Part shown: positions 13,038 through 44,124 of the stretch, in pieces
How the letters are laid out: each line of letters starts with the position of its first letter
Position numbering within the stretch: the first letter of the stretch is position 1
IMG/VR virus record: IMGVR_UViG_3300045988_101743
Span: 1-64,000 of that record
Direction: 5' to 3' (one strand)
DNA from: a virus
Length of the DNA stretch: 64,000 bases
Program-made: the position numbers and the translations under genes
Notes under the pieces: model-generated
Told to the model about the DNA's origin: nothing
The model's input: the letters and a program-made list of their open reading frames with translations, nothing else
The model's database searches: none

Positions 13038-14252
13038 ATGAAGTACCGCATTTACGTAGACACAACGAAAAAGAGGCAAGACGAGCAAAGCCCGGTCGTG
13101 CTAATATTCGAGGACAGTGGAATGAGGTTCAAGATTTCCACGGGCCTGTTCTCTTCCAGGAAGTTCACAGGAAAGGAGTTTCCAAAAGAAGAGCCCAACC
13201 ACAAGGCTAAGACTCTCAATCTTGCGAAAAAGCTGCTTGATATCGACGAATACCTACTGGTGAACAGCGGTGTTCCGTTCAACAAGGCGAAAGAGGATAT
13301 CAAGGCGATTTTGAACGGAGAGGGGAACGCCCTGAAGCCAATCACGTTCTACATGGAGGAGCTGGCCAAGACCAAGACGCCGAGCACCGCAAAGTTCTAT
13401 ATCAAGACAGCGAGGAAGATCAGGGAGTTCGACCCATCAGCCACCTTCGACACCATAGATGCTGAATGGCTGCAAAATTTCGACACGCACATGAAGGAGA
13501 ACGGGAACACGACCGTCAATGGCCGCGCCATCCATCTTCGCGACATAAAGGCCGTGTTCAACGCCGCCTTGGCCGATGAGATAACGACCAAGTACCCATT
13601 CAGGAAGTTCAAGATCAAGGCGGACAGCGTACCCATCAAGAACATAACGCTTGAGCAGCTTAGGGAGCTCAGGGATTGCAAGGTTGAGCCCAACAGCCGT
13701 ATTTACCGCGACCTGTTCCTCCTGTCGTTCTACCTTTGCGGCATCAACCCTGTCGATCTGCTGCACCTCACTAAGGCAAACATCAAGAATGGGCGCATCG
13801 TTTATACGAGGAGCAAGACGCACAAGCTGTACGACATACCTCTGCCACCGGAAGCGAAGGAGATTTTCAGGATGTATAAGGGGAAAGACTACCTGTTGGA
13901 GGTGCTTGACTATTACGGTGATGATTACCTGCATTTCCTGAGCAGATGGAATAAGATGCTGAAAAGAATAGGAAATATGAAGATATGCGAGCGTTCGGAC
14001 GGCAGGAAGGTGCTGAGGATGGGTGAGCCTATATTGCCGAATCTGACTGTTTATTCGGCCAGATACACCTTTGCGAGCATCGGTGCGGTGCTTGAGATAC
14101 CGAGAGAGACCATAGCGTTGTGCCTTGGTCACTCTTGGGCCGATGTCACCGCGCATTATATCAGCTATAGCATGAAGCGTATAGATGATGCGGTAAGGAA
14201 GATCATTGACTATGTGAACGCAGACATTTCCAATGAAAATGACGATATATGA
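13038..14252 (+). CDS. Tyrosine site-specific integrase
   Basis: 404 aa. C-terminal catalytic region ...RYTFASIGAVLEIPRETIALCLGHSWADVTAHYISY carries R, HxxR and Y. Confidence 0.85.
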   Translation: MKYRIYVDTTKKRQDEQSPVVLIFEDSGMRFKISTGLFSSRKFTGKEFPKEEPNHKAKTLNLAKKLLDIDEYLLVNSGVPFNKAKEDIKAILNGEGNALKPITFYMEELAKTKTPSTAKFYIKTARKIREFDPSATFDTIDAEWLQNFDTHMKENGNTTVNGRAIHLRDIKAVFNAALADEITTKYPFRKFKIKADSVPIKNITLEQLRELRDCKVEPNSRIYRDLFLLSFYLCGINPVDLLHLTKANIKNGRIVYTRSKTHKLYDIPLPPEAKEIFRMYKGKDYLLEVLDYYGDDYLHFLSRWNKMLKRIGNMKICERSDGRKVLRMGEPILPNLTVYSARYTFASIGAVLEIPRETIALCLGHSWADVTAHYISYSMKRIDDAVRKIIDYVNADISNENDDI

Positions 14253-22635: not shown

Positions 22636-23571
22636 TTAGCTAAACAACGCCAGTACCTGTTTGCTGATTTTCTTTCGAGCACAGATATAGTTTGACGTCA
22701 TTGTGATGTTCGGTACATTTCCGCTTATGTGGCCCATCATGATGGCAATCTGCTCCAATGGGCAACCCTTGAGCGACAGGAGCGTTGCGAAGGTCCTGCG
22801 CCCCGTGTGTGTCGCAATGAACTGGTACTTCTTCCCGACCTTTGTCTTGCCGTTCGAGAACACGGACACCTCGTCGGTTATGCCGCATTTCCTGCACATG
22901 TCCCTAATCGGTTCGTTTAGGTGGTCGTTACGAATGTTTCTCTCATTGTCGGCCCAATCGTCCACAAGGTATTGAAGAAGCCATCTGTGTACGGGCACAG
23001 ACACCTCTACGGGGTGTTTTTGTGGAACGTACGTAAGGTACTCTGTGCCGTCGATGGTGTGCAGGTTGGCGATCGTGAACCTTCGGCAGTCAACACACCT
23101 CGCGCCAGTAAGGCACTCGCGCATGAACATGAACTTGGCGTAACGCTCACGCTCGTTCATCGGCTGGTAGTTGTGCAGCCTCTTGAGCTCGGCGGACGTA
23201 AGGTACACGTTCTGCGACGGAACCTTCTTGGACTTGAGGATTGTTGAGAAAGTCTTTGACTTGATGGGTTTCGTGGCCGAGTTCCTGTTGAGGATGGCCT
23301 TTAGCTCCGCGCATATAGTACGAACGCTGTTTGGCGACATCTCGGACAGCATATCCTCCTTTAGGTCGGACAGGGTGTCGTCGGTCAGGTCCTCCCACTC
23401 GGGAGTCCTTCCTATGATGTCCCTAAGCCTTACAAGCGTAGTGATCCTGCCTGGATGCTTGCGACACCACGTTCCCGAGAACGAATGCCAACGAGGGTTC
23501 TCTACGGTCAGGAACCCATGCTTGATAGCGGAGGAGTATTTCTTCCTCTGCTCTTCAGTTAGTTGTTTCAT
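22636..23571 (-). CDS. Second tyrosine recombinase (phage-integrase/XerD-like), carrying the cassette-type upstream motif
   Basis: ATHTGRRTFATLL...EQIAIMMGHISGNVPNITMTSNYI carries HxxR and a Y nucleophile. The upstream element is catatattaaccaatatccattATG. Confidence 0.8.
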   Translation of the reverse strand: MKQLTEEQRKKYSSAIKHGFLTVENPRWHSFSGTWCRKHPGRITTLVRLRDIIGRTPEWEDLTDDTLSDLKEDMLSEMSPNSVRTICAELKAILNRNSATKPIKSKTFSTILKSKKVPSQNVYLTSAELKRLHNYQPMNERERYAKFMFMRECLTGARCVDCRRFTIANLHTIDGTEYLTYVPQKHPVEVSVPVHRWLLQYLVDDWADNERNIRNDHLNEPIRDMCRKCGITDEVSVFSNGKTKVGKKYQFIATHTGRRTFATLLSLKGCPLEQIAIMMGHISGNVPNITMTSNYICARKKISKQVLALFS

Positions 23572-23648
23572 GACTCATAATGGATATTGGTTAATATATG
23601 GCTCCGCACACCTGTTTCACAAAGCGTGCGGATGTTGGCCAAACGCCC

Positions 23649-24149
23649 TTAGATGAGAGATACGGCTGCCGTGCCGGACAGCTTTCCCCTCTTCTTCTCA
23701 ACAACATACCCTCCCATTATGCGCAACATAGAGAGACTGTTCTCATAGAAAGGGTTGTCAACGATGATATATGTTGACGAATACAGCGTACGTTTTTTAA
23801 TCTCTGACGCATAATCGCTGAACCCTTCCGCTCCATAGTTGCGAATGCTGTATTTAATCCACTCGTCGAGGTCTATGTTCATGGTCTTCCAACCGCGTTC
23901 CCTGTCTTCGTCTGACAAGTTCCAGTATTCGTGACGGTCCCATCCGTACTCTCCGTCCTTCTTCATTCTCTCAACCTCTTCGCCAGTCTTGATGTCGACA
24001 AAACGAGTACGTAGCACGACGAGCCTACTGTTGACGTCTCGCTCGGAGAAGTATCCGGCCACGGCGTTCATGAAGCCTGTTGTGTCAAACTTGTTCGGAA
24101 CGAAACCCTTCTCCTTCAGAAGGTCTTTCGCCGTGATGATTTTTCCCAT
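23649..24149 (-). CDS. Hypothetical protein (166 aa), cassette-type gene
   Basis: Preceded by cgtatattaaccattaaaacaactaagcatttATG. Confidence 0.5.
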   Translation of the reverse strand: MGKIITAKDLLKEKGFVPNKFDTTGFMNAVAGYFSERDVNSRLVVLRTRFVDIKTGEEVERMKKDGEYGWDRHEYWNLSDEDRERGWKTMNIDLDEWIKYSIRNYGAEGFSDYASEIKKRTLYSSTYIIVDNPFYENSLSMLRIMGGYVVEKKRGKLSGTAAVSLI

Positions 24150-25647
24150 AAATGCTTAGTTGTTTTAATGGTTAATATACGTTCGCAAAGGTAGGTAAAT
24201 TATCTTATAACAACCAACCTTTTTATCTCTTTAACATAATAAATTCCGTCTGGCTCACAGGTGTGCGCACACGGCGAAAATATAGGCGCACTCTGAGGGT
24301 AGTGTAGCGTTCCTGTACGTGTGTGGTGTGGAGTGTGAGACGGCACGGTTTAATGAAAGCGACAGCTTATTAAACGGTACCATAGCTCAGAGTCCACCGA
24401 ATTGAGCCCTCCTTGTGCGCCTTCGGCTGCTATGCCGAATCCATGTGTCAGACGGCGCGCCGCATGACTATACTTCAATGACTAATTATGCGTGAGTCAC
24501 GATGAAGGATCGACGTCTGAGGGATACGAAGACGTCGATCTTGATTCAAGAGACTCATGCTTAAGATAATGTCGTCCTTCACAATGGAAAACTGCGGTTT
24601 TTGAATTGGTGGGCACGCTCAGACGGCGTGTAGCCTATCTGTACGTCATTGATACGCACCCGTTGCGTAGTGAAATGGTCCGCGTTCGATTTGCACGCGG
24701 ACCATGATCCGTAACAAACGGGGGCATTGAATTGTCCGTCCTTGCGTGTCCGTAGGGCTATCTGCTTGCTCCCCTCATTGACCTTGGCGCAACGCTATAC
24801 TCAGTTGATGTAAGCTGAGGGATAGACCCGGGTGAAAGGATGTCCGTTGGCATCAAGGAACCCGGGTGATACCCAGCTTTCATAAATGTGGTCAAACTTG
24901 GGAAACTACCCATGCGTTTGGGTTTTCGCGATTGCAGGCGGCTTGGTACAGTCGTCTACTTGATTGTTTTGTGCAATACTCGCCAGAAGACCGACATAGA
25001 GGTCGTCTGGTTAGAGACTTGCTTGATAAATGATGTCGCTCGCCATCGCGCTTTGGCGGTGTACTCCGCCTATGGATTGCGAAACAGACTGGCGCATCGC
25101 TTTATTAGCTTGATATAACCCGCCTTCTGAAAGAGATGGTTCCTGAAATCGGACGTTCGGTAGAACATGCGTTTCAGTGCTCCATCTCTCTCCTTGAGAG
25201 GCGGCGTTATTGAATTTGCCCGTTCCTCATCCATCACCGTGCGCCCGGTGCTCATAAAGGATCCACTCATGGCACATCCCGCATCGCATTACGTGTGTGA
25301 TACGAATCCTGTGGGAATGACCGGATAATCCAACCTAAAGCCTCGCCGATAAGGCAGGCTTTGGCTCGGATGAGCCGGTTCACTCACCAGGACGCTAAAT
25401 GTTGTGCCCGTCGTGAAGCGACCCTGCGGTGGGTTTGTGTCTTCCGTCATGTCGCGTTCCACATTGCAATACTGCGTTGATGTTGTGCGGCGTTGACACT
25501 GGCATCGTTAAGCCCGGTGTGGGTTTCAAGGATGCCAGTGGGAGGCCGTCTTCTTCCAGCGCGTTAGAGCTGGACCGAAGACGGACGTACGCCGCATGCT
25601 GAATATGCGACCATTCGGAAGACGGGCCCTGCGGTGGGTCACAACCA
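24150..25647 (-). other. 1.5-kb ORF-free, hairpin-rich region immediately 3' of the reverse transcriptase: candidate retroelement RNA component (DGR template region, group II intron domains or novel RT-associated ncRNA)
   Basis: No ORF of 60 aa or more with protein-like composition, despite about 50% GC. It has many perfect 8-11-bp stems, for example gatcgacgtct...agacgtcgatc at 24511-24542 and ggtccgcg...cgcggacc at 24680-24706. A 13-nt direct repeat ccctgcggtgggt at 25422 and 25627 brackets a hairpin at 25546-25584. Confidence 0.35.
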
Positions 25648-26913
25648 TTAGAGGTTGGCGACAAGCGCGCCGTACGCGGCCTTGCTTGTGCGTAGGGCCT
25701 TCTGGGCGCATCCGATTGACAGGAAGCCGCAAAGCTCCTTGTCGACCTTCGCCCTGTTGGCCTTGACGTTTCGGCCACGGCCACGGTCTATGCAACCTAC
25801 GGCCTGTGTCTTGACGTACCCGAGGCCACCAACCTTCGTCTTGCCTGTGCCTACCGCACGTATGCAGTCCATGGCAAAGGCGTTGAGCTTGTCGATGTCC
25901 TCCTTGACATTGAGGACGGGAAGAACCTGTGTGGCCCACGAGAACTCACCGTAGCCCTTGTAGAGGTATCGGTTGACAGCGTTGATGGCTTTCGCCATCG
26001 TATTGCCGCGCTTCTTGATGGTCCTTCTCTCAATCTCCTTCTGGAAGGTCTTGATCCTCTTTGCGGAGAGTGAGATGCTCCTTCCCTTGATGGAATACCC
26101 GAGGAACTTGAACCAGTGGTCCGAGTCAAGGTATTCGACCTTCTTGGGATTGAGCGTCATGCCCATCTTGGCCAGCTCCTCCGTCATGATCACCATGGCC
26201 TCCTTGTAGTCCTTTCCGATGAACAGCGTGTCGTCAGAGTAGCGGACGTAGTATCCGCCGAGACGGGACAGCCTGTCATCGATATGGTACAGGACCACGT
26301 CGGCGAGCCATGAGGCAACGCTGCAACCCTGCTTTAACGACTGGTACTTCTCTTGTAGAACGCCTTCTGTGTCAAAATAGTAGTTGCAATGGTAGTAATC
26401 CCTGATGACATCAACGAGAGCCGACTTACCGAACTTGTCCTCGACCTTGTCAAAGGCCCAGTCAACGAACGCAAGCGGCACCGTGTCGAAATACTTCGAC
26501 AGGTCGGACTTGAAGCCTATGACCGTACCGTTGGCGGAGGCTATCCTTGTGGAAACCTCCTGTACGACACGGCCACAACCCAGGCCCTTTTGGTAGGACT
26601 TGCAATTGGGATGCACCATCTCGGGCATAATCTCAAACAACAGGTCGTTTGCGATGCTGAGAAGAATGCGGTCGGCAGGCTCATTGATATAGACGGTACG
26701 GAACTCTCCGTTGTCCTTTGGTATGAGCGCCGTGTGTGGCGGCATGATCTTGTACTTTCCGTCACGTATTCTCCTATACATCTCAGCGCGCGCCTGTGGC
26801 GTAGTGAGCCTGTACATCGTGGCCTTGTCCATGTCCTTGTCCATGCCCTTCGCTATGGCGTATTGCCAACGCTCGGGCTCAAAGAACATCTGTAAGATTT
26901 TGTCTTCTTTCAT
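25648..26913 (-). CDS. Reverse transcriptase (RT motifs 1-7, YSDD catalytic box); family unresolved
   Basis: IPKDNGEFRTVY (motif 1), FKSDLSKYFDTV (motif 3, DGR-like KYFD), KQGCSVASWLADVVL (motif 4, group-II-like QG), YVRYSDDTLFIG (motif 5) and WFKFLGYSI (motif 7). 421 aa, with the cassette motif aacattaaccaatagaattATG upstream. Confidence 0.85.
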   Translation of the reverse strand: MKEDKILQMFFEPERWQYAIAKGMDKDMDKATMYRLTTPQARAEMYRRIRDGKYKIMPPHTALIPKDNGEFRTVYINEPADRILLSIANDLLFEIMPEMVHPNCKSYQKGLGCGRVVQEVSTRIASANGTVIGFKSDLSKYFDTVPLAFVDWAFDKVEDKFGKSALVDVIRDYYHCNYYFDTEGVLQEKYQSLKQGCSVASWLADVVLYHIDDRLSRLGGYYVRYSDDTLFIGKDYKEAMVIMTEELAKMGMTLNPKKVEYLDSDHWFKFLGYSIKGRSISLSAKRIKTFQKEIERRTIKKRGNTMAKAINAVNRYLYKGYGEFSWATQVLPVLNVKEDIDKLNAFAMDCIRAVGTGKTKVGGLGYVKTQAVGCIDRGRGRNVKANRAKVDKELCGFLSIGCAQKALRTSKAAYGALVANL

Positions 26914-26986
26914 AATTCTATTGGTTAATGTTAAACATGTGCCCTACTCTTTATGTAGGGCTTAGGGCTACGACACATTCAAGCGC

Positions 26987-27478
26987 TTAGGCCTTTTGGG
27001 TTCTTGCCGCAAAAAGGAGTGATTTCCATTCGTCATAGGAAACATACAACTCGAATAAGTCGTACTTCTCCATACCGCACTCCTTTCTCTTTGCCACAGC
27101 GGTACGCCTGTTGTCGCAAAAAACATACACGTCGTTGTTGTCCCTGAAATACCAGTAGCACACGCCAGGGCCATTCGTGAGGAATATCTCCTTGTCGCGC
27201 TCCCACAACTGCTCTCTAAGGAGTAGTCTCTGATTCCGAATGCACGTTCTGTTGATGTCGTCGGCTTTAAGTGTAGTCACGAACTTGTGCTTACAACGCT
27301 TCTCAATCAGCTTGAGAAGGTTGGGGCGCCATGCCTCGTTGTCCACAAACGGGAAGTCTCTGTTCTGGAATGAATACTCCGTACCGCTGACGCTTACGTG
27401 TATCTCACTTTTGTTCTCAATGGGCGCGTTCTTGACAGCGTCAAGGAGGCTTGAAATCTCTGCTTTTGTCATATTCAT
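26987..27478 (-). CDS. Hypothetical protein (163 aa), cassette gene
   Basis: ttattaaccattaaaaatttATG upstream and a hairpin downstream. Confidence 0.5.
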   Translation of the reverse strand: MNMTKAEISSLLDAVKNAPIENKSEIHVSVSGTEYSFQNRDFPFVDNEAWRPNLLKLIEKRCKHKFVTTLKADDINRTCIRNQRLLLREQLWERDKEIFLTNGPGVCYWYFRDNNDVYVFCDNRRTAVAKRKECGMEKYDLFELYVSYDEWKSLLFAARTQKA

Positions 27479-27719
27479 AAATTTTTAATGGTTAATAAGA
27501 GAGCCGGCCATGAGCTAACATGACCGACTGTTTTGGCCCAATGTCGCAGGCATGGCGCCTGTCTTTAGTCTTTCGATCTAATAAGCTGCCTTCTGTGAAG
27601 GCTGCTGGATACTTCACACTAAAGGTGTTACCTTGTGTGAGTATCCACCGCCTTCGGTTTGAGAAGCTTATGTGAATTTTTGCCTGCCCACACTGGGGCG
27701 CTTGGCGTTTAGGTGAGCG

Positions 27720-28721
27720 TTACTTCTTTCTCCACTCGGCAATCTTCTTGTCCACGTCGATGCCAGAGTCCTCGATGAGTTTCTTCATGACGCCGATCAT
27801 GCGCCAGCCTTCAACGACATACTCGCTGGCCTTCAACTCAACAAAGTCGAGCGACTTCTTCTCGTTGAGGCCGGTGAAGCGAGCGCCATGGAACATGATG
27901 AGGTTTCGCATGGTGAAATAGGCGCCAGAACCCTTGTACGCGTTGATGAACGAACCACTGATATTCGTGCTTCTCGCAAGGCGCTTGCGGTGCTTGTTGA
28001 AATCGCACACCAGCTCGTACAGCTTGCGCGGAGACTGCTCGTAGTTGAACTTCACGGCGTAACGGCGAATGTCGTCATACAACTTCTTGTTGAGGTCGCT
28101 CACGAAGATGTTCCTGCCTCCAATGCGCACATAGGGAACACCCTTGCACGTGTGCTTGTAGACTTTCTTCCTCTCGGAGTTGAGGCGGTACATGAGTTTG
28201 CCCTCCACGTAATCCTTGAGAGTGTTGAGATAATCTGACGCCATGACGGATATCGTTGGCCCGTTGAACCACTGGTTGCGACGCATAAAGTTGGCCATGT
28301 CGCCATGCTTGTGCATCTTCATCTGAGCGCGAAGCTCATCCTCGACCATGCGCCACTGGTACTCATAGCCTCGCTCCTGAAGGAGCTGGTTGAAATTCTT
28401 ACCGGACTTCATGTTTCTGAGGATATGGAACATCTGTGCCATGACCCATCTGCGGAATAGCTTGTAGTGGTTGATGTAACCACCGCCAGCAATCTTCGTG
28501 TAGACAGGGTCGTCGTCGTCAACCATCACAGGAACTCCGTCGACGACCTTGACAACCATCTCCTCTCCCATTGGAAAGTAGTTTGATGTGTCAACGCCAG
28601 CCGCCTTGAGCGCCTCGATGCGAGCGGCTGCTCCCTTGGGCTTGTAAACCTTGGCGCTTGCGCCCTGACCGTTCATCTCTGACAATGTGAACTCACCTGA
28701 AATCATTACGTTTCTTTTCAT
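27720..28721 (-). CDS. Hypothetical protein (333 aa), cassette gene
   Basis: cattattaaccaactaaattttagcaattATG upstream. Confidence 0.55.
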   Translation of the reverse strand: MKRNVMISGEFTLSEMNGQGASAKVYKPKGAAARIEALKAAGVDTSNYFPMGEEMVVKVVDGVPVMVDDDDPVYTKIAGGGYINHYKLFRRWVMAQMFHILRNMKSGKNFNQLLQERGYEYQWRMVEDELRAQMKMHKHGDMANFMRRNQWFNGPTISVMASDYLNTLKDYVEGKLMYRLNSERKKVYKHTCKGVPYVRIGGRNIFVSDLNKKLYDDIRRYAVKFNYEQSPRKLYELVCDFNKHRKRLARSTNISGSFINAYKGSGAYFTMRNLIMFHGARFTGLNEKKSLDFVELKASEYVVEGWRMIGVMKKLIEDSGIDVDKKIAEWRKK

Positions 28722-28792
28722 AATTGCTAAAATTTAGTTGGTTAATAATGTTAAAAACATGAAGAGGAACGGGGTGTGAACCCCATGCCTCC

Positions 28793-29071
28793 TTAGGCTG
28801 TCCTGTAAACTGCATCACATTCTATAATGGCCTTGTATTTCTTAGGGAACTTGGACCATCCATTGTACGCCTTGATAACTTGCCTCGACGACCACCATGT
28901 GACTGCCTCCTCGTCAATGTGGAAGCATTTTAGCTTATCCGTATCGTCATACAGAACCCACTCGCCTGATGCAAGCACGCCTTCCCTTAGATGAATGGCA
29001 TGGCCGCCAGACTCCGAATACCGACGCACAAGGTCGTCAACATAGTGGTAGTCGCAATAAATCTTTCTCAT
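28793..29071 (-). CDS. Hypothetical protein (92 aa), cassette gene
   Basis: cattattaaccaaccaaagaacgtattATG upstream. Confidence 0.45.
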   Translation of the reverse strand: MRKIYCDYHYVDDLVRRYSESGGHAIHLREGVLASGEWVLYDDTDKLKCFHIDEEAVTWWSSRQVIKAYNGWSKFPKKYKAIIECDAVYRTA

Positions 29072-29140
29072 AATACGTTCTTTGGTTGGTTAATAATGCT
29101 GACAGGAACGGCCACGCTAATGGCCGCACCCGGAAAAGGC

Positions 29141-29614
29141 TCAATCGTTTGAATCCACCCATTTGCGAAGGATGACGAAATCCCTGTCGTTCTTGGACTG
29201 CCAGAACCACGTTCCGTACTCGTCCTTCCATTTCAGGGCACCGGTCATGACCGCTGCAAGCACCAATGATTCAAGCATGAACCTCGCAAACTCTCGCGGC
29301 TCGCCGTAAATCATGTCAGCGTCCGACAACTCCTTCTCGGGCAAAGCCTTGAAATAGGTCCTGCGGTGCGACTCCGAGCGCTCTGATGGCACGGACCGCT
29401 TGTACGCCTCGTAGCGAACCTCAAGGCACTTGATGATGTCGTGCCCCTCAAAATCCTCCTCGCTAACACCGAGGGGAAGGTCGTGCTTTCCATCCTTGAT
29501 GAGATACTTACCGTCAATGATGAGGGATCGCCTCTCAAGGTTGACATAGAACTTTGCGCCATTGCTGACGAGCTCCTCTGTCTCCTTTCCGAAAATCTTA
29601 TCCATAATAATCAC
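29141..29614 (-). CDS. Hypothetical protein (157 aa), cassette gene
   Basis: catattaaccaacaaacgtgattattATG upstream. Confidence 0.5.
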   Translation of the reverse strand: MIIMDKIFGKETEELVSNGAKFYVNLERRSLIIDGKYLIKDGKHDLPLGVSEEDFEGHDIIKCLEVRYEAYKRSVPSERSESHRRTYFKALPEKELSDADMIYGEPREFARFMLESLVLAAVMTGALKWKDEYGTWFWQSKNDRDFVILRKWVDSND

Positions 29615-29669
29615 GTTTGTTGGTTAATATGCGCCAGTCACGCCGTATTCCGGCATGGCTGGCTGTTGG

Positions 29670-29882
29670 CTAAATGTTGTCGGAGACAACACGCTTGTCT
29701 GTCGCCATCGCCACGCGCTTATGACGCATGGCGCCGGCCTCATAGACCGTAACATAACGGTACTCCTTGGCGAGTTCAATCATCCTCTTTCTCGCCTCCT
29801 GTCTTGTCAGCAAGGCTGAAGTTTGCTCTACGCCAAGACCAAGTCTGAAAACATACACCCTCATAGCGTTCATTACCACCAC
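29670..29882 (-). CDS. Small hypothetical protein (70 aa)
   Basis: ORF overlapping the previous stop by 10 nt. Confidence 0.35.
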   Translation of the reverse strand: MVVMNAMRVYVFRLGLGVEQTSALLTRQEARKRMIELAKEYRYVTVYEAGAMRHKRVAMATDKRVVSDNI

Positions 29883-30413: not shown

Positions 30414-30461
30414 AATTCAAAATTTGATTGGTTAATAACAAGATCCGCATTAAGCTACACA

Positions 30462-35473: not shown

Positions 35474-35510
35474 AATTGCTAAAATTTAGTTGGTTAATAA
35501 TGTGCGATAC

Positions 35511-38912: not shown

Positions 38913-39208
38913 TTAGTGCGGACAGGATACTCGATATGGCCGAGGACAAGGCGGCTGTCGAGACGTGGATGATGACCATCGCCCACGGGATAGAGACAGG
39001 TGTGATGCCGCGCCATTTCATCACATTTCATGATGATTGGTTGACGGACTTGGCGCAACAGGTTGAGGACGGCTTGAAAAGCTTGGTGTCAAGATGCCGA
39101 AAGACGATTAGTTGTCATATATACAACAAGACGCCACGAGCATCACTGCCCACGGCGCCCATGAATATTAACCAATTAAATTTATACGTTTTATGGATAC
39201 GTATGTGA
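38909..39208 (+). CDS. Hypothetical protein (start MISADRILDM; ATGA overlap with the previous stop)
   Basis: ORF. Confidence 0.4.
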   Translation: MISADRILDMAEDKAAVETWMMTIAHGIETGVMPRHFITFHDDWLTDLAQQVEDGLKSLVSRCRKTISCHIYNKTPRASLPTAPMNINQLNLYVLWIRM

Positions 39209-44051: not shown

Positions 44052-44124
44052 AGCGGAGTGGCAGCAGTGGTAGCTCGCTTGCCTCATGAGCAAGAGGTCG
44101 TTGGTTCGATTCCATCCTCCGCAA
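44052..44124 (+). tRNA. tRNA-Met(CAT)-like gene (imperfect acceptor and D-stem pairing; no encoded CCA)
   Basis: Anticodon stem cttgc/gcaag with loop ctCATga. T-loop ggTTCGATTcc. D-loop AGTGGTA. 3' strand ctccgc pairs with 5' gcggag. Confidence 0.45.

Follow-up and report, generated by a model that had tools for sequence, protein, structure and literature searches.

Organization of the Reverse Transcriptase Locus

The window analysed here is a 64,000-nucleotide (nt) stretch of viral DNA, positions 1 to 64,000 of the IMG/VR record IMGVR_UViG_3300045988_101743, and the locus of interest within it is a UG27 reverse transcriptase (RT) gene together with the genes and structured non-coding RNA (ncRNA) around it on the minus strand. 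Read along that strand, the order is a small accessory gene (sORF, 29141..29614), a 92-residue open reading frame (ORF), a large accessory gene (bORF, 27720..28721), a solitary ncRNA unit, a 163-residue ORF, the RT gene (25648..26913) and eight tandem ncRNA units. A first-pass annotation of this DNA had placed the whole of a candidate retroelement at 24150-26913. The system extends beyond this interval, with the partner genes and one further RNA unit at 27528-29614, and therefore spans 24277-29614.

The RT is a protein of 421 residues with a YSDD active site, and it aligns with the PADLOC profile RT_UG27 over essentially its full length (residues 3-421 on profile positions 2-420 of 420; 719 bits, E = 3.4e-217). 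Every non-UG27 RT profile in PADLOC scores at least 600 bits lower, including UG26 (118 bits), UG17 (96), Drt9 (91), Drt3a (48) and Drt2 (42), and the retron and CRISPR-associated RT profiles all remain below 90 bits (RT_Ec107-like, 38 bits). RVT_1 is the sole Pfam match (E = 3.5e-19). Among the NCBIfam models the top match is TIGR04416 (group_II_RT_mat; E = 4e-32), at 111.7 bits against a cut-off of 300; the retron model NF038233 gives 34.9 against a cut-off of 235, and Drt2, Drt3a and Drt4 are each far under their cut-offs. On its sequence we class the protein as UG27, a class 2 UG/Abi RT. The motifs SKYFDTV, LKQGCSVAS and YSDD (VRYSDDTLF) can be read in the ORF, as the first-pass annotation had reported for the polymerase motifs with their KYFD, QG-type motif 4 and YSDD box, but the mixture of family signatures that it saw in them is the ordinary make-up of class 2 UG/Abi RTs and no evidence of a hybrid.

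UG27 was described as a class 2 UG/Abi RT found mostly in predicted gut phages of Bacteroidetes and Firmicutes, accompanied by two partner gene clusters of unknown function, one of the partner genes being separated from the RT by a putative ncRNA (Mestre et al. 2022, PMC9226505). The length of the present RT lies inside the canonical 380-450 residues given in a later preprint on the family (Li et al. 2026, 10.64898/2026.09.22.753630), and the YSDD catalytic motif is present. Two further contigs, one from an ENA metagenome and one from GCA_021636105.1, encode a protein of identical sequence, and the closest RTs come from genomes of Segatella copri, Prevotella, Leyella and Alistipes and from IMG/VR contigs.

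The two partner proteins were identified by orthology and synteny: sORF, 157 residues from a GTG start (called as 154 residues on near-identical contigs), and bORF, 333 residues. A search of IMG/VR returned 353 relatives of the RT, of which 80 (76-80% identity) were kept, and when these loci were searched with the neighbours in the window (tblastn), homologues of sORF and of bORF were each found in 76, the four loci lacking them being among those whose contigs end near the RT. The pair also accompanies related RTs in nearly all of the genome loci, and wherever it occurs its two genes are neighbours, placed upstream of the RT in some loci and behind the array in others. Orthologues of the three proteins in Alistipes putredinis DSM 17216 are 66% (RT), 49% (sORF) and 40% (bORF) identical, and the array of that strain is matched by the covariance model R2 described below.

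Neither partner has a relative in Pfam, PHROGs or PDB. AlphaFold2 models of the two are confident (predicted local distance difference test scores of 91.5 and 80), and their structure matches are generic helical only; for the 333-residue protein in particular, Pfam gives no match at E<=0.01 and the model resembles nothing beyond generic helical bundles. This accords with published descriptions, in which the partner proteins have no known function or domain (PMC9226505; 10.64898/2026.09.22.753630). Some bORF homologues (P0012, P0017, P0018 and others) carry a precomputed Pfam tag, PF19263, which may be spurious.

Tandem Structured RNA Units in the ORF-free Region

On the RT strand, the 1,498 nt from 25647 to 24150 contain short or overlapping ORFs only before the next gene is reached at 23649-24149, and gene callers put no gene in this region on two near-identical public contigs, in agreement with the earlier description of about 1.5 kb with no credible ORF 3' of the RT. 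The region is made up of eight tandem ncRNA units of ~145-205 nt each, and a ninth unit lies directly 3' of the 333-residue gene. Each unit consists of a 5' mini-hairpin, an outer stem (P1), an AAG/UGA-type internal loop, an inner stem (P2), a few nt, the tetranucleotide UUYA and a central hairpin of 62-118 nt that is specific to the unit; after the hairpin come the motif AUCN7UANAG and then ~11 nt complementary to the loop of the 5' mini-hairpin. Bracketing of the central hairpin by UUYA and AUCNNNNNNNUANAG is found in the eight tandem units and in the solitary one. Written as DNA, ATC-N7-TA-N-AG, the 3' motif returns every 155-187 nt beyond the RT gene, both in the window and in all related loci, and it does so on the RT strand only. 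The motif or a one-position variant of it occurs on the minus strand at 25481, 25301, 25114, 24809, 24653, 24482 and 24327, with a divergent copy at 24964 and an exact copy at 27577, inside the 241-nt gap after the 333-residue gene; across the nine units it is exact in four, off at one position in four and more deviant in u4. In the preprint, UG27 loci are described as carrying arrays of ~150-nt ncRNA units in which a main hairpin is interrupted by an asymmetric loop with UUYA and AUCNNNNNNNUANAG, and which also have a basal hairpin and a pseudoknot (10.64898/2026.09.22.753630).

The nine units, all on the minus strand, were delimited as follows, with the z score of each hairpin against dinucleotide shuffles given after its coordinates. 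The solitary unit x (27528..27734; z = -7.5) has UUCA at 27676-27673, a central hairpin of 95 nt at 27672-27578 and the 3' motif AUCGAAAGACUAAAG at 27577-27563. The array opens with u1 (25439..25642; z = -7.6), parsed by hand, in which the pseudoknot hairpin ACCCACCGCAGGG (25639-25627) and UUCA (25603-25600) precede a Y-shaped central hairpin of 118 nt (25599-25482) and the 3' motif AUCAACGCAGUAUUG (25481-25467). The unit u2 (25257..25436; z = -5.7), also parsed by hand, has its pseudoknot hairpin at 25434-25422, UUUA at 25399-25396, a central hairpin of 94 nt at 25395-25302 and AUCACACACGUAAUG at 25301-25287. In u3 (25065..25259; z = -7.9), UUCA (25214-25211), a 96-nt hairpin (25210-25115) and AUCAAGCUAAUAAAG (25114-25100) are accompanied by a 6-bp pseudoknot, GGCGCA/UGCGCC. 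The divergent u4 (24927..25070; z = -4.9) fits the period of the array by its position and combines UUUA (25030-25027) and a central hairpin of 62 nt (25026-24965) with the variant motif AUCAAGUAGAC (24964-24954) and the pseudoknot GUACA/UGUAC. There follow u5 (24768..24924; z = -3.95), with UUUA at 24886-24883, a 73-nt hairpin at 24882-24810 and AUCAACUGAGUAUAG at 24809-24795, and u6 (24604..24770; z = -4.4), with UUCA at 24731-24728, a 74-nt hairpin at 24727-24654 and AUCAAUGACGUACAG at 24653-24639. A second divergent unit, u7 (24440..24601; z = -5.7), has UUAU at 24569-24566, a central hairpin of 83 nt at 24565-24483, GUCAUUGAAGUAUAG at 24482-24468 and the pseudoknot CCGCA/UGCGG, and the array closes with u8 (24277..24455; z = -5.7), where UUCG (24401-24398) is followed by a 70-nt hairpin (24397-24328) and ACCACACACGUACAG (24327-24313).

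Two landmarks of the first-pass annotation find their place in this scheme. The 13-nt direct repeat that it reported is real, ACCCACCGCAGGG recurring on the minus strand at 25639-25627 and 25434-25422, since it is the pseudoknot (5') hairpin of u1 and u2, and the strong hairpin at 25546-25584 belongs to the central hairpin of u1. The loop of the mini-hairpin and the loop after UANAG co-vary from unit to unit (ACCGCA/UGCGG, GGCGCA/UGCGCC, GUACA/UGUAC), concerted changes of the kind that a real pseudoknot predicts. A strict closure of the hairpin right beside UUYA and AUC was also considered and fails in most units, offsets of 0-3 nt or more being common.

Statistical and Comparative Support for the Units

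The nine segments from UUYA to AUC fold with z = -3.95 to -7.9 against dinucleotide shuffles, none of 200 shuffles equalling the real sequence, which bears out the dense structure originally noted. Within a unit, the 5' flank pairs with the 3' flank at a mean of -22.7 kcal/mol, as against -13.2 kcal/mol for flanks of mismatched units (permutation p = 5e-5), and the pseudoknot partners likewise pair more strongly within units than between them (-9.8 versus -7.8 kcal/mol; p = 0.0016). The predicted complementary DNA (cDNA) segments fold as DNA hairpins as well, with z = -3.9 to -8.1.

A blastn comparison of the array with the 80 related loci gave zero matches, and on their RT strand the 3' motif is spaced as in the window, one further copy following the bORF homologue. 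Plain MAFFT alignment of whole units yielded 395 columns and was unusable. A seed model from apex-trimmed units (A2 to R1) was used solely to align the real units of eight other loci (A4). R2 was built from A4, and R3 from 64 units of 20 loci that include genomes of Segatella, Leyella, Alistipes, Bacteroides and Faecalimonas; the seeds of R2 and R3 contain no sequence from the window. When both strands of the 64-kb window were searched, R2 gave five matches and R3 four, all on the minus strand within predicted units (E = 1e-11 to 6e-4). On the related loci the models gave 83, 67 and 64 matches, all on the RT strand.

Unit by unit, R3 recovers u3 (55.7 bits, E = 1.2e-11), u6 (51.1 bits, E = 1.6e-10), unit x (33.8 bits, E = 1.8e-6) and u8 (31.0 bits, E = 7.8e-6) in the whole window, where R2 finds u3 (E = 2.8e-10), unit x (E = 2.4e-6), u8 (E = 2.1e-4) and u5 (20.2 bits, E = 6.4e-4); u8 was in no seed. 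In a 12-kb search R3 also places u5 (22.8 bits, E = 1.3e-4), with its 5' half misaligned, and gives a marginal score to u1 (12.2 bits, E = 0.039). It aligns u2 correctly at only 7.9 bits (E = 0.39), the 17.2 bits of u2 with R1 being those of a unit that sat in the R1 seed. With filters off over 12 kb R3 missed u4 and u7, both of which are hand parses with no model match.

The alignment of related units carries the signature of a conserved structure: 74% of its cells are paired, as against 51% after shuffling and 33-43% when the pairing partners are slid, and 23 of the 24 pairs show double (compensatory) changes. The pseudoknot helix, which was absent from the aligning model, is 82% paired in the related loci, with double changes in four of its five pairs. 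Among the loci searched with the models, a unit directly after bORF was matched in 15. That this unit trails bORF whether the sORF-bORF pair stands upstream of the RT or downstream of the array suggests that it is linked to bORF and is not a stray member of the array. Single units right after the bORF stop can be seen at 10188-10354 in L014, 9896-10065 in L002, 10429-10596 in L084 and 5166-5337 in L083.

Variation between Near-identical Phages

Two contigs that are 98-99% identical to the window (L081 and L082) allowed change at the locus to be followed. Differences per 100 nt amount to 0.08-0.32 in the RT gene, 1.4-2.5 in the array and 4.6-5.8 in the intergenic region of unit x, such that the RNA regions change 5-30 times faster per nt than the RT gene. 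The changes cluster in the central hairpins and leave them intact. In u4 the apex (24988-25005) is an exact inversion relative to L081, which is otherwise 99% identical, GACGACCTCTATGTCGGTCTTC being replaced by GAAGACCGACATAGAGGTCGTC; the hairpin is kept, and its loop and mismatches are exchanged for their complement. Such apex inversion may be one route by which the payload hairpins diversify. Comparison with the same two contigs also shows a 16-nt apex deletion in u8 (24355-24370), a 3-nt insertion in u5 (24872), a clustered replacement in u3 (25190-25200) and stem-restoring substitutions in unit x (27602-27649). This variation fits the modular, changeable array of the preprint and adds a concrete route of change to it, leaving the classification unaltered.

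The exchange of payloads as cassettes between fixed scaffolds was also considered. Of 1,810 pairs of units with scaffolds at least 85% identical, 56 have payloads of less than 60% identity, and swapping of this kind is at most occasional. Orthologous units with a near-identical scaffold and unrelated central hairpins occur, for example, at 7942-8114 in L019, 7938-8116 in L008 and 7939-8108 in L025.

Assignment of the Locus and Proposed Mechanism

Taken together, we hold with high confidence that the locus is a UG27 system, comprising the RT, two accessory proteins and an array of structured RNA units expected to template short DNA hairpins. It shares with the published UG27 systems (PMC9226505; Li et al. 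2026, 10.64898/2026.09.22.753630) the RT, an sORF and bORF without known domains, an array on the RT strand with the same motifs, basal hairpin and pseudoknot, the extra intergenic unit, the setting in a Bacteroidota phage or prophage, and a high sequence diversity of the units. No family-defining difference was found. Peculiar to this locus are the 92- and 163-residue ORFs, which sit among the core genes, and the length of several payload hairpins (94-118 nt), from which cDNAs a little longer than the published 50-100 nt are predicted. Since the RT lies firmly within UG27 and both partners and a UG27-type ncRNA array are present, the idea that this might be something new is refuted: the locus is a new example of a known family, not a new type. 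An RT next to 1.5 kb of structured RNA is a striking combination that this family accounts for: UG27 was named in 2022, and reports of its RNA array and cDNA output followed in 2026. The observations of the first-pass annotation are confirmed, and its interpretation is partly supported.

The RNA anatomy, the three-gene set and the orthology to a tested system come from the present analysis, and the further steps of the mechanism would be those of the preprint. Each unit would serve as a scaffold that presents its long, unit-specific central hairpin. By homology with systems tested in E. coli, the RT, sORF and bORF would bind each unit, reverse transcription would start at AUC and end just past UUYA, and one short single-stranded DNA hairpin would be released per unit, giving nine predicted products of about 69-125 nt. 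These would be plus-strand DNAs whose 5' ends lie opposite AUC, at 27575, 25479, 25299, 25112, 24962, 24807, 24651, 24480 and 24325, and whose 3' ends fall at UUYA or close to it. In the homologous systems, as reported in the preprint, units of ~150 nt template single-stranded DNAs of 50-100 nt running from AUC to UUYA, cDNA production is abolished by the change of the active site to YSAA or by deletion of either accessory ORF, and A. putredinis DSM 17216 is one of five systems with RT-dependent cDNAs that map to the central hairpins (10.64898/2026.09.22.753630). No phenotype is reported there, nor any complementarity of the cDNAs to genomes of phages or hosts, and here the array shows no complementarity or match to the rest of the 64-kb window.

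As to what the hairpins do, the presence of the system in phages and its lack of enrichment in defence islands lead us to guess, with somewhat less than even confidence, that they act in conflict between phage and host or between phages, perhaps by serving DNA-binding proteins as decoys or ligands. A more elaborate proposal, which we regard as speculative and rather improbable, is that a conserved scaffold here displays a rapidly evolving library of payload hairpins, which would diversify in place through the apex inversions, apex deletions or insertions and compensated substitutions seen between the near-identical phages. The shape or sequence of each cDNA would then set its specificity against proteins of the host or of rival phages, so forming a reprogrammable repertoire of DNA ligands or decoys; the unit that follows bORF could then have a distinct, constitutive role.

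Several points weigh against the assignment and the mechanism as set out. The nearest experimentally tested relative shares only 66% identity in the RT, the experimental source is an unreviewed preprint (10.64898/2026.09.22.753630), and the proposed biological role is speculation. The units u4 and u7 were parsed only by hand and u1 and u2 are marginal in the independent models, so that these could be decayed or of another subtype, and three units have imperfect motifs (UUAU, UUCG, GUC, ACC). The usual gene order is also interrupted by the 92- and 163-residue ORFs. The locus is useful as an independent example resolved in detail, with nine units mapped and the cDNA boundaries predicted, and its two near-identical natural variants show payload hairpins changing while the RT stays constant. 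Loci of this kind lie in phages related to prophages of cultivable Segatella and Prevotella, for example one of Segatella copri at 915-929 kb of NZ_CP152484.1.

Alternative Explanations

Three known kinds of retroelement come into question as the identity of the locus. A diversity-generating retroelement (DGR), in which a downstream template repeat (TR) is copied with adenine errors into the variable repeat (VR) of a tail-fibre gene, would also be a phage-borne RT beside a non-coding template; the motif A sequence SKYFD resembles that of DGR RTs and the window holds a 2,404-residue ORF that could be a fibre. The DGR RT signature at motif 4 is [ILV]GxxxSQ. The present RT, however, has QGCSVAS at this motif and belongs to another RT clade, UG27. 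No copy of any part of 24150-25647 was found elsewhere in the 64-kb window by blastn, which returned only the region's own palindromes and weak matches between units (with a 7-nt word, the best non-self match to the array is 28 nt, E = 0.09), and Pfam gave no match except the integrase, and no Avd-type protein, among nine neighbouring proteins. With the region fully accounted for by nine repeated structured units, we give the DGR originally entertained practically no chance, even though some UG27 phages also carry separate DGRs according to the preprint (10.64898/2026.09.22.753630). Hardly any probability attaches either to a group II intron, possibly in a degenerate form, with the ribozyme domains around its RT/maturase ORF lost or rearranged. 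The distant similarity of the RT domain is seen in the best NCBIfam match, TIGR04416, and in the QG-type motif 4, but the score is far below the cut-off, Pfam detects no GIIM or maturase X domain, there are no intron boundaries and no RNA 5' of the ORF, and the flanking RNA repeats one motif in tandem in place of domains I-VI. Rfam searches, at the gathering threshold over the whole window (one tRNA only) and at E<=1 over 23900-27800, revealed no group II domain V-VI or other intron family, no retron and no other ncRNA family in the latter interval. The retron, which makes branched multicopy single-stranded DNA from an msr-msd RNA and whose accessory genes encode abortive-infection effectors, comes nearest in its output, as it likewise copies a hairpin of an adjacent ncRNA into a short, abundant single-stranded DNA hairpin, and UG27 RTs are reported to match the cd01646 'retron-type RT' domain (10.64898/2026.09.22.753630). 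Yet we consider a retron very improbable: NF038233 and RT_Ec107-like lie far below the cut-off and the UG27 score, respectively, and the locus has many templates per RT, all downstream and with different conserved motifs, in contrast to the single ncRNA upstream of the RT, the branching-G priming and the toxin-type effectors of retrons. The accessory proteins are not effectors, since, according to the preprint, both are needed for cDNA synthesis itself. The earlier view that neither a canonical group II intron nor a canonical retron fits is thus sustained by profiles below their cut-offs and by the lack of a corresponding Rfam RNA.

Two further alternatives accept the UG27 system and concern its function or its extent. 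The identical machinery could serve host defence, the prophage protecting its lysogen as DRT2, DRT3 and DRT9 do; the RT-plus-ncRNA part of the defence system envisaged in the first-pass annotation stands, and the defensive role is retained as a rival at the level of function that we think unlikely, if worth keeping in view. In its favour, the closest UG27 relatives are class 2 UG/Abi RTs with proven ncRNA-dependent antiphage activity, the profile similarity being to UG26, UG17 and Drt9, and the phage that carries the locus is temperate, with integrases, superinfection-exclusion genes being common in such phages. DRT2 (UG2), DRT9 (UG28) and DRT3 (UG3+UG8) share with UG27 the RT superfamily and class, the lack of fused domains and the use of an adjacent structured ncRNA as template. 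They have one ncRNA per system, mostly 5' of the RT, and make long products, a concatemeric cDNA in DRT2 and a homopolymer in DRT9. They are chromosomal defence-island genes, whereas UG27 is phage-borne, has many templates, yields short discrete hairpins and needs two accessory proteins; assignment of the present RT to UG2, UG3/UG8 or UG28 fails on the PADLOC scores given above (Drt9 91, Drt3a 48 and Drt2 42 versus 719 bits). The preprint also contrasts the short UG27 products with long DRT-type products (10.64898/2026.09.22.753630). Against a defensive role, UG27 is not enriched in defence islands and a non-defence role has been proposed for it (Mestre et al. 2022, PMC9226505), and the lack of a reported phenotype or cDNA target is joined here by an array without counterpart in the rest of the window. 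The other alternative is that the array is only partly functional, u1, u2, u4 and u7 being in decay or of a subtype that the RT does not copy. These four fall below significance in the independent models and contain deviant motifs or hairpin lengths (the 118-nt Y-shape, UAUUG, UAAUG, AUCAAGUAGAC and UUAU/GUC), but in all of them P1 and P2 still pair in a unit-specific way (-18.6 to -26.8 kcal/mol), the complement for the pseudoknot is present and the hairpins fold with z = -4.9 to -7.6. Their hairpins vary between near-identical phages and yet stay hairpins, the u4 apex being exactly inverted, and one model cannot capture the diversity of the UG27 ncRNAs, as stated in the preprint (10.64898/2026.09.22.753630). 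A partly functional array seems to us rather unlikely.

Flanking ORFs, Upstream Element and Phage Context

Two of the ORFs within the locus probably lie outside the core of the system. The 92-residue ORF between sORF and bORF (28793..29071, minus strand) has no family match and has a homologue in five of the 80 related loci, there not between sORF and bORF. The 163-residue ORF between unit x and the RT (26987..27478, minus strand), which is lineage-specific, has no family match and no homologue in the 80 IMG/VR loci; one genome locus, L083, gives a weak 33% match, and in L082 the ORF is split into two shorter gene calls (37 and 119 residues). The 163- and 166-residue ORFs that here directly flank the RT and array are not conserved in the 80 loci.

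The RT gene is preceded by the element ATTAACCAAT (26920..26929, minus strand), common to the neighbouring genes, and the promoter-like element earlier noted before the RT and its neighbours is thereby substantiated: the consensus ATTAACCAWY occurs 10 times in the window against 0.45 expected. Nine copies lie on the minus strand just upstream of ORF starts, that of the RT included (23586-23595, 24167-24176, 26920-26929, 27487-27496, 28737-28746, 29085-29094, 29619-29628, 30427-30436 and 35489-35498), and one on the plus strand (39167-39176). It stands a few to ~25 nt before the start codon of most small genes in the block, often just after a short GC hairpin, and all of its 356 occurrences in the 80 related phage loci are on the gene strand. 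It may serve as a promoter specific to the phage, mark a processing site or act as a signal for translation. A scan of 23500-29800 for sigma-70 promoters and intrinsic terminators gave nothing above chance. No Bacteroidota-type -7 box, TAnnTTTG, precedes the RT or the array, which starts within 10 nt of it, so the array is probably transcribed together with the RT. Such a box (TACCTTTG, 24186-24193, minus strand) is present ~40 nt upstream of the 166-residue gene after the array.

The carrier, a tailed phage or a prophage, comes from gut Bacteroidota, and there probably from the Segatella/Prevotella group. The window encodes a portal protein, the large terminase subunit (TerL), a major head protein, a primase, an integrase and an anti-repressor. 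Blastn against the GenBank phage collection turned up a single weak match, confined to the RT, and nothing for 36000-58000. A tyrosine recombinase gene (22636-23571, minus strand) lies two genes downstream of the array and has a homologue near the UG27 module in 21 of the 80 related loci and in several genome loci; a typical phage integrase, also a tyrosine recombinase, is encoded at 13038-14252 on the plus strand. The tRNA gene detected by Rfam (47 bits; 44052-44124, plus strand), with a CAU anticodon as read from the alignment, adjoins the terminase gene.

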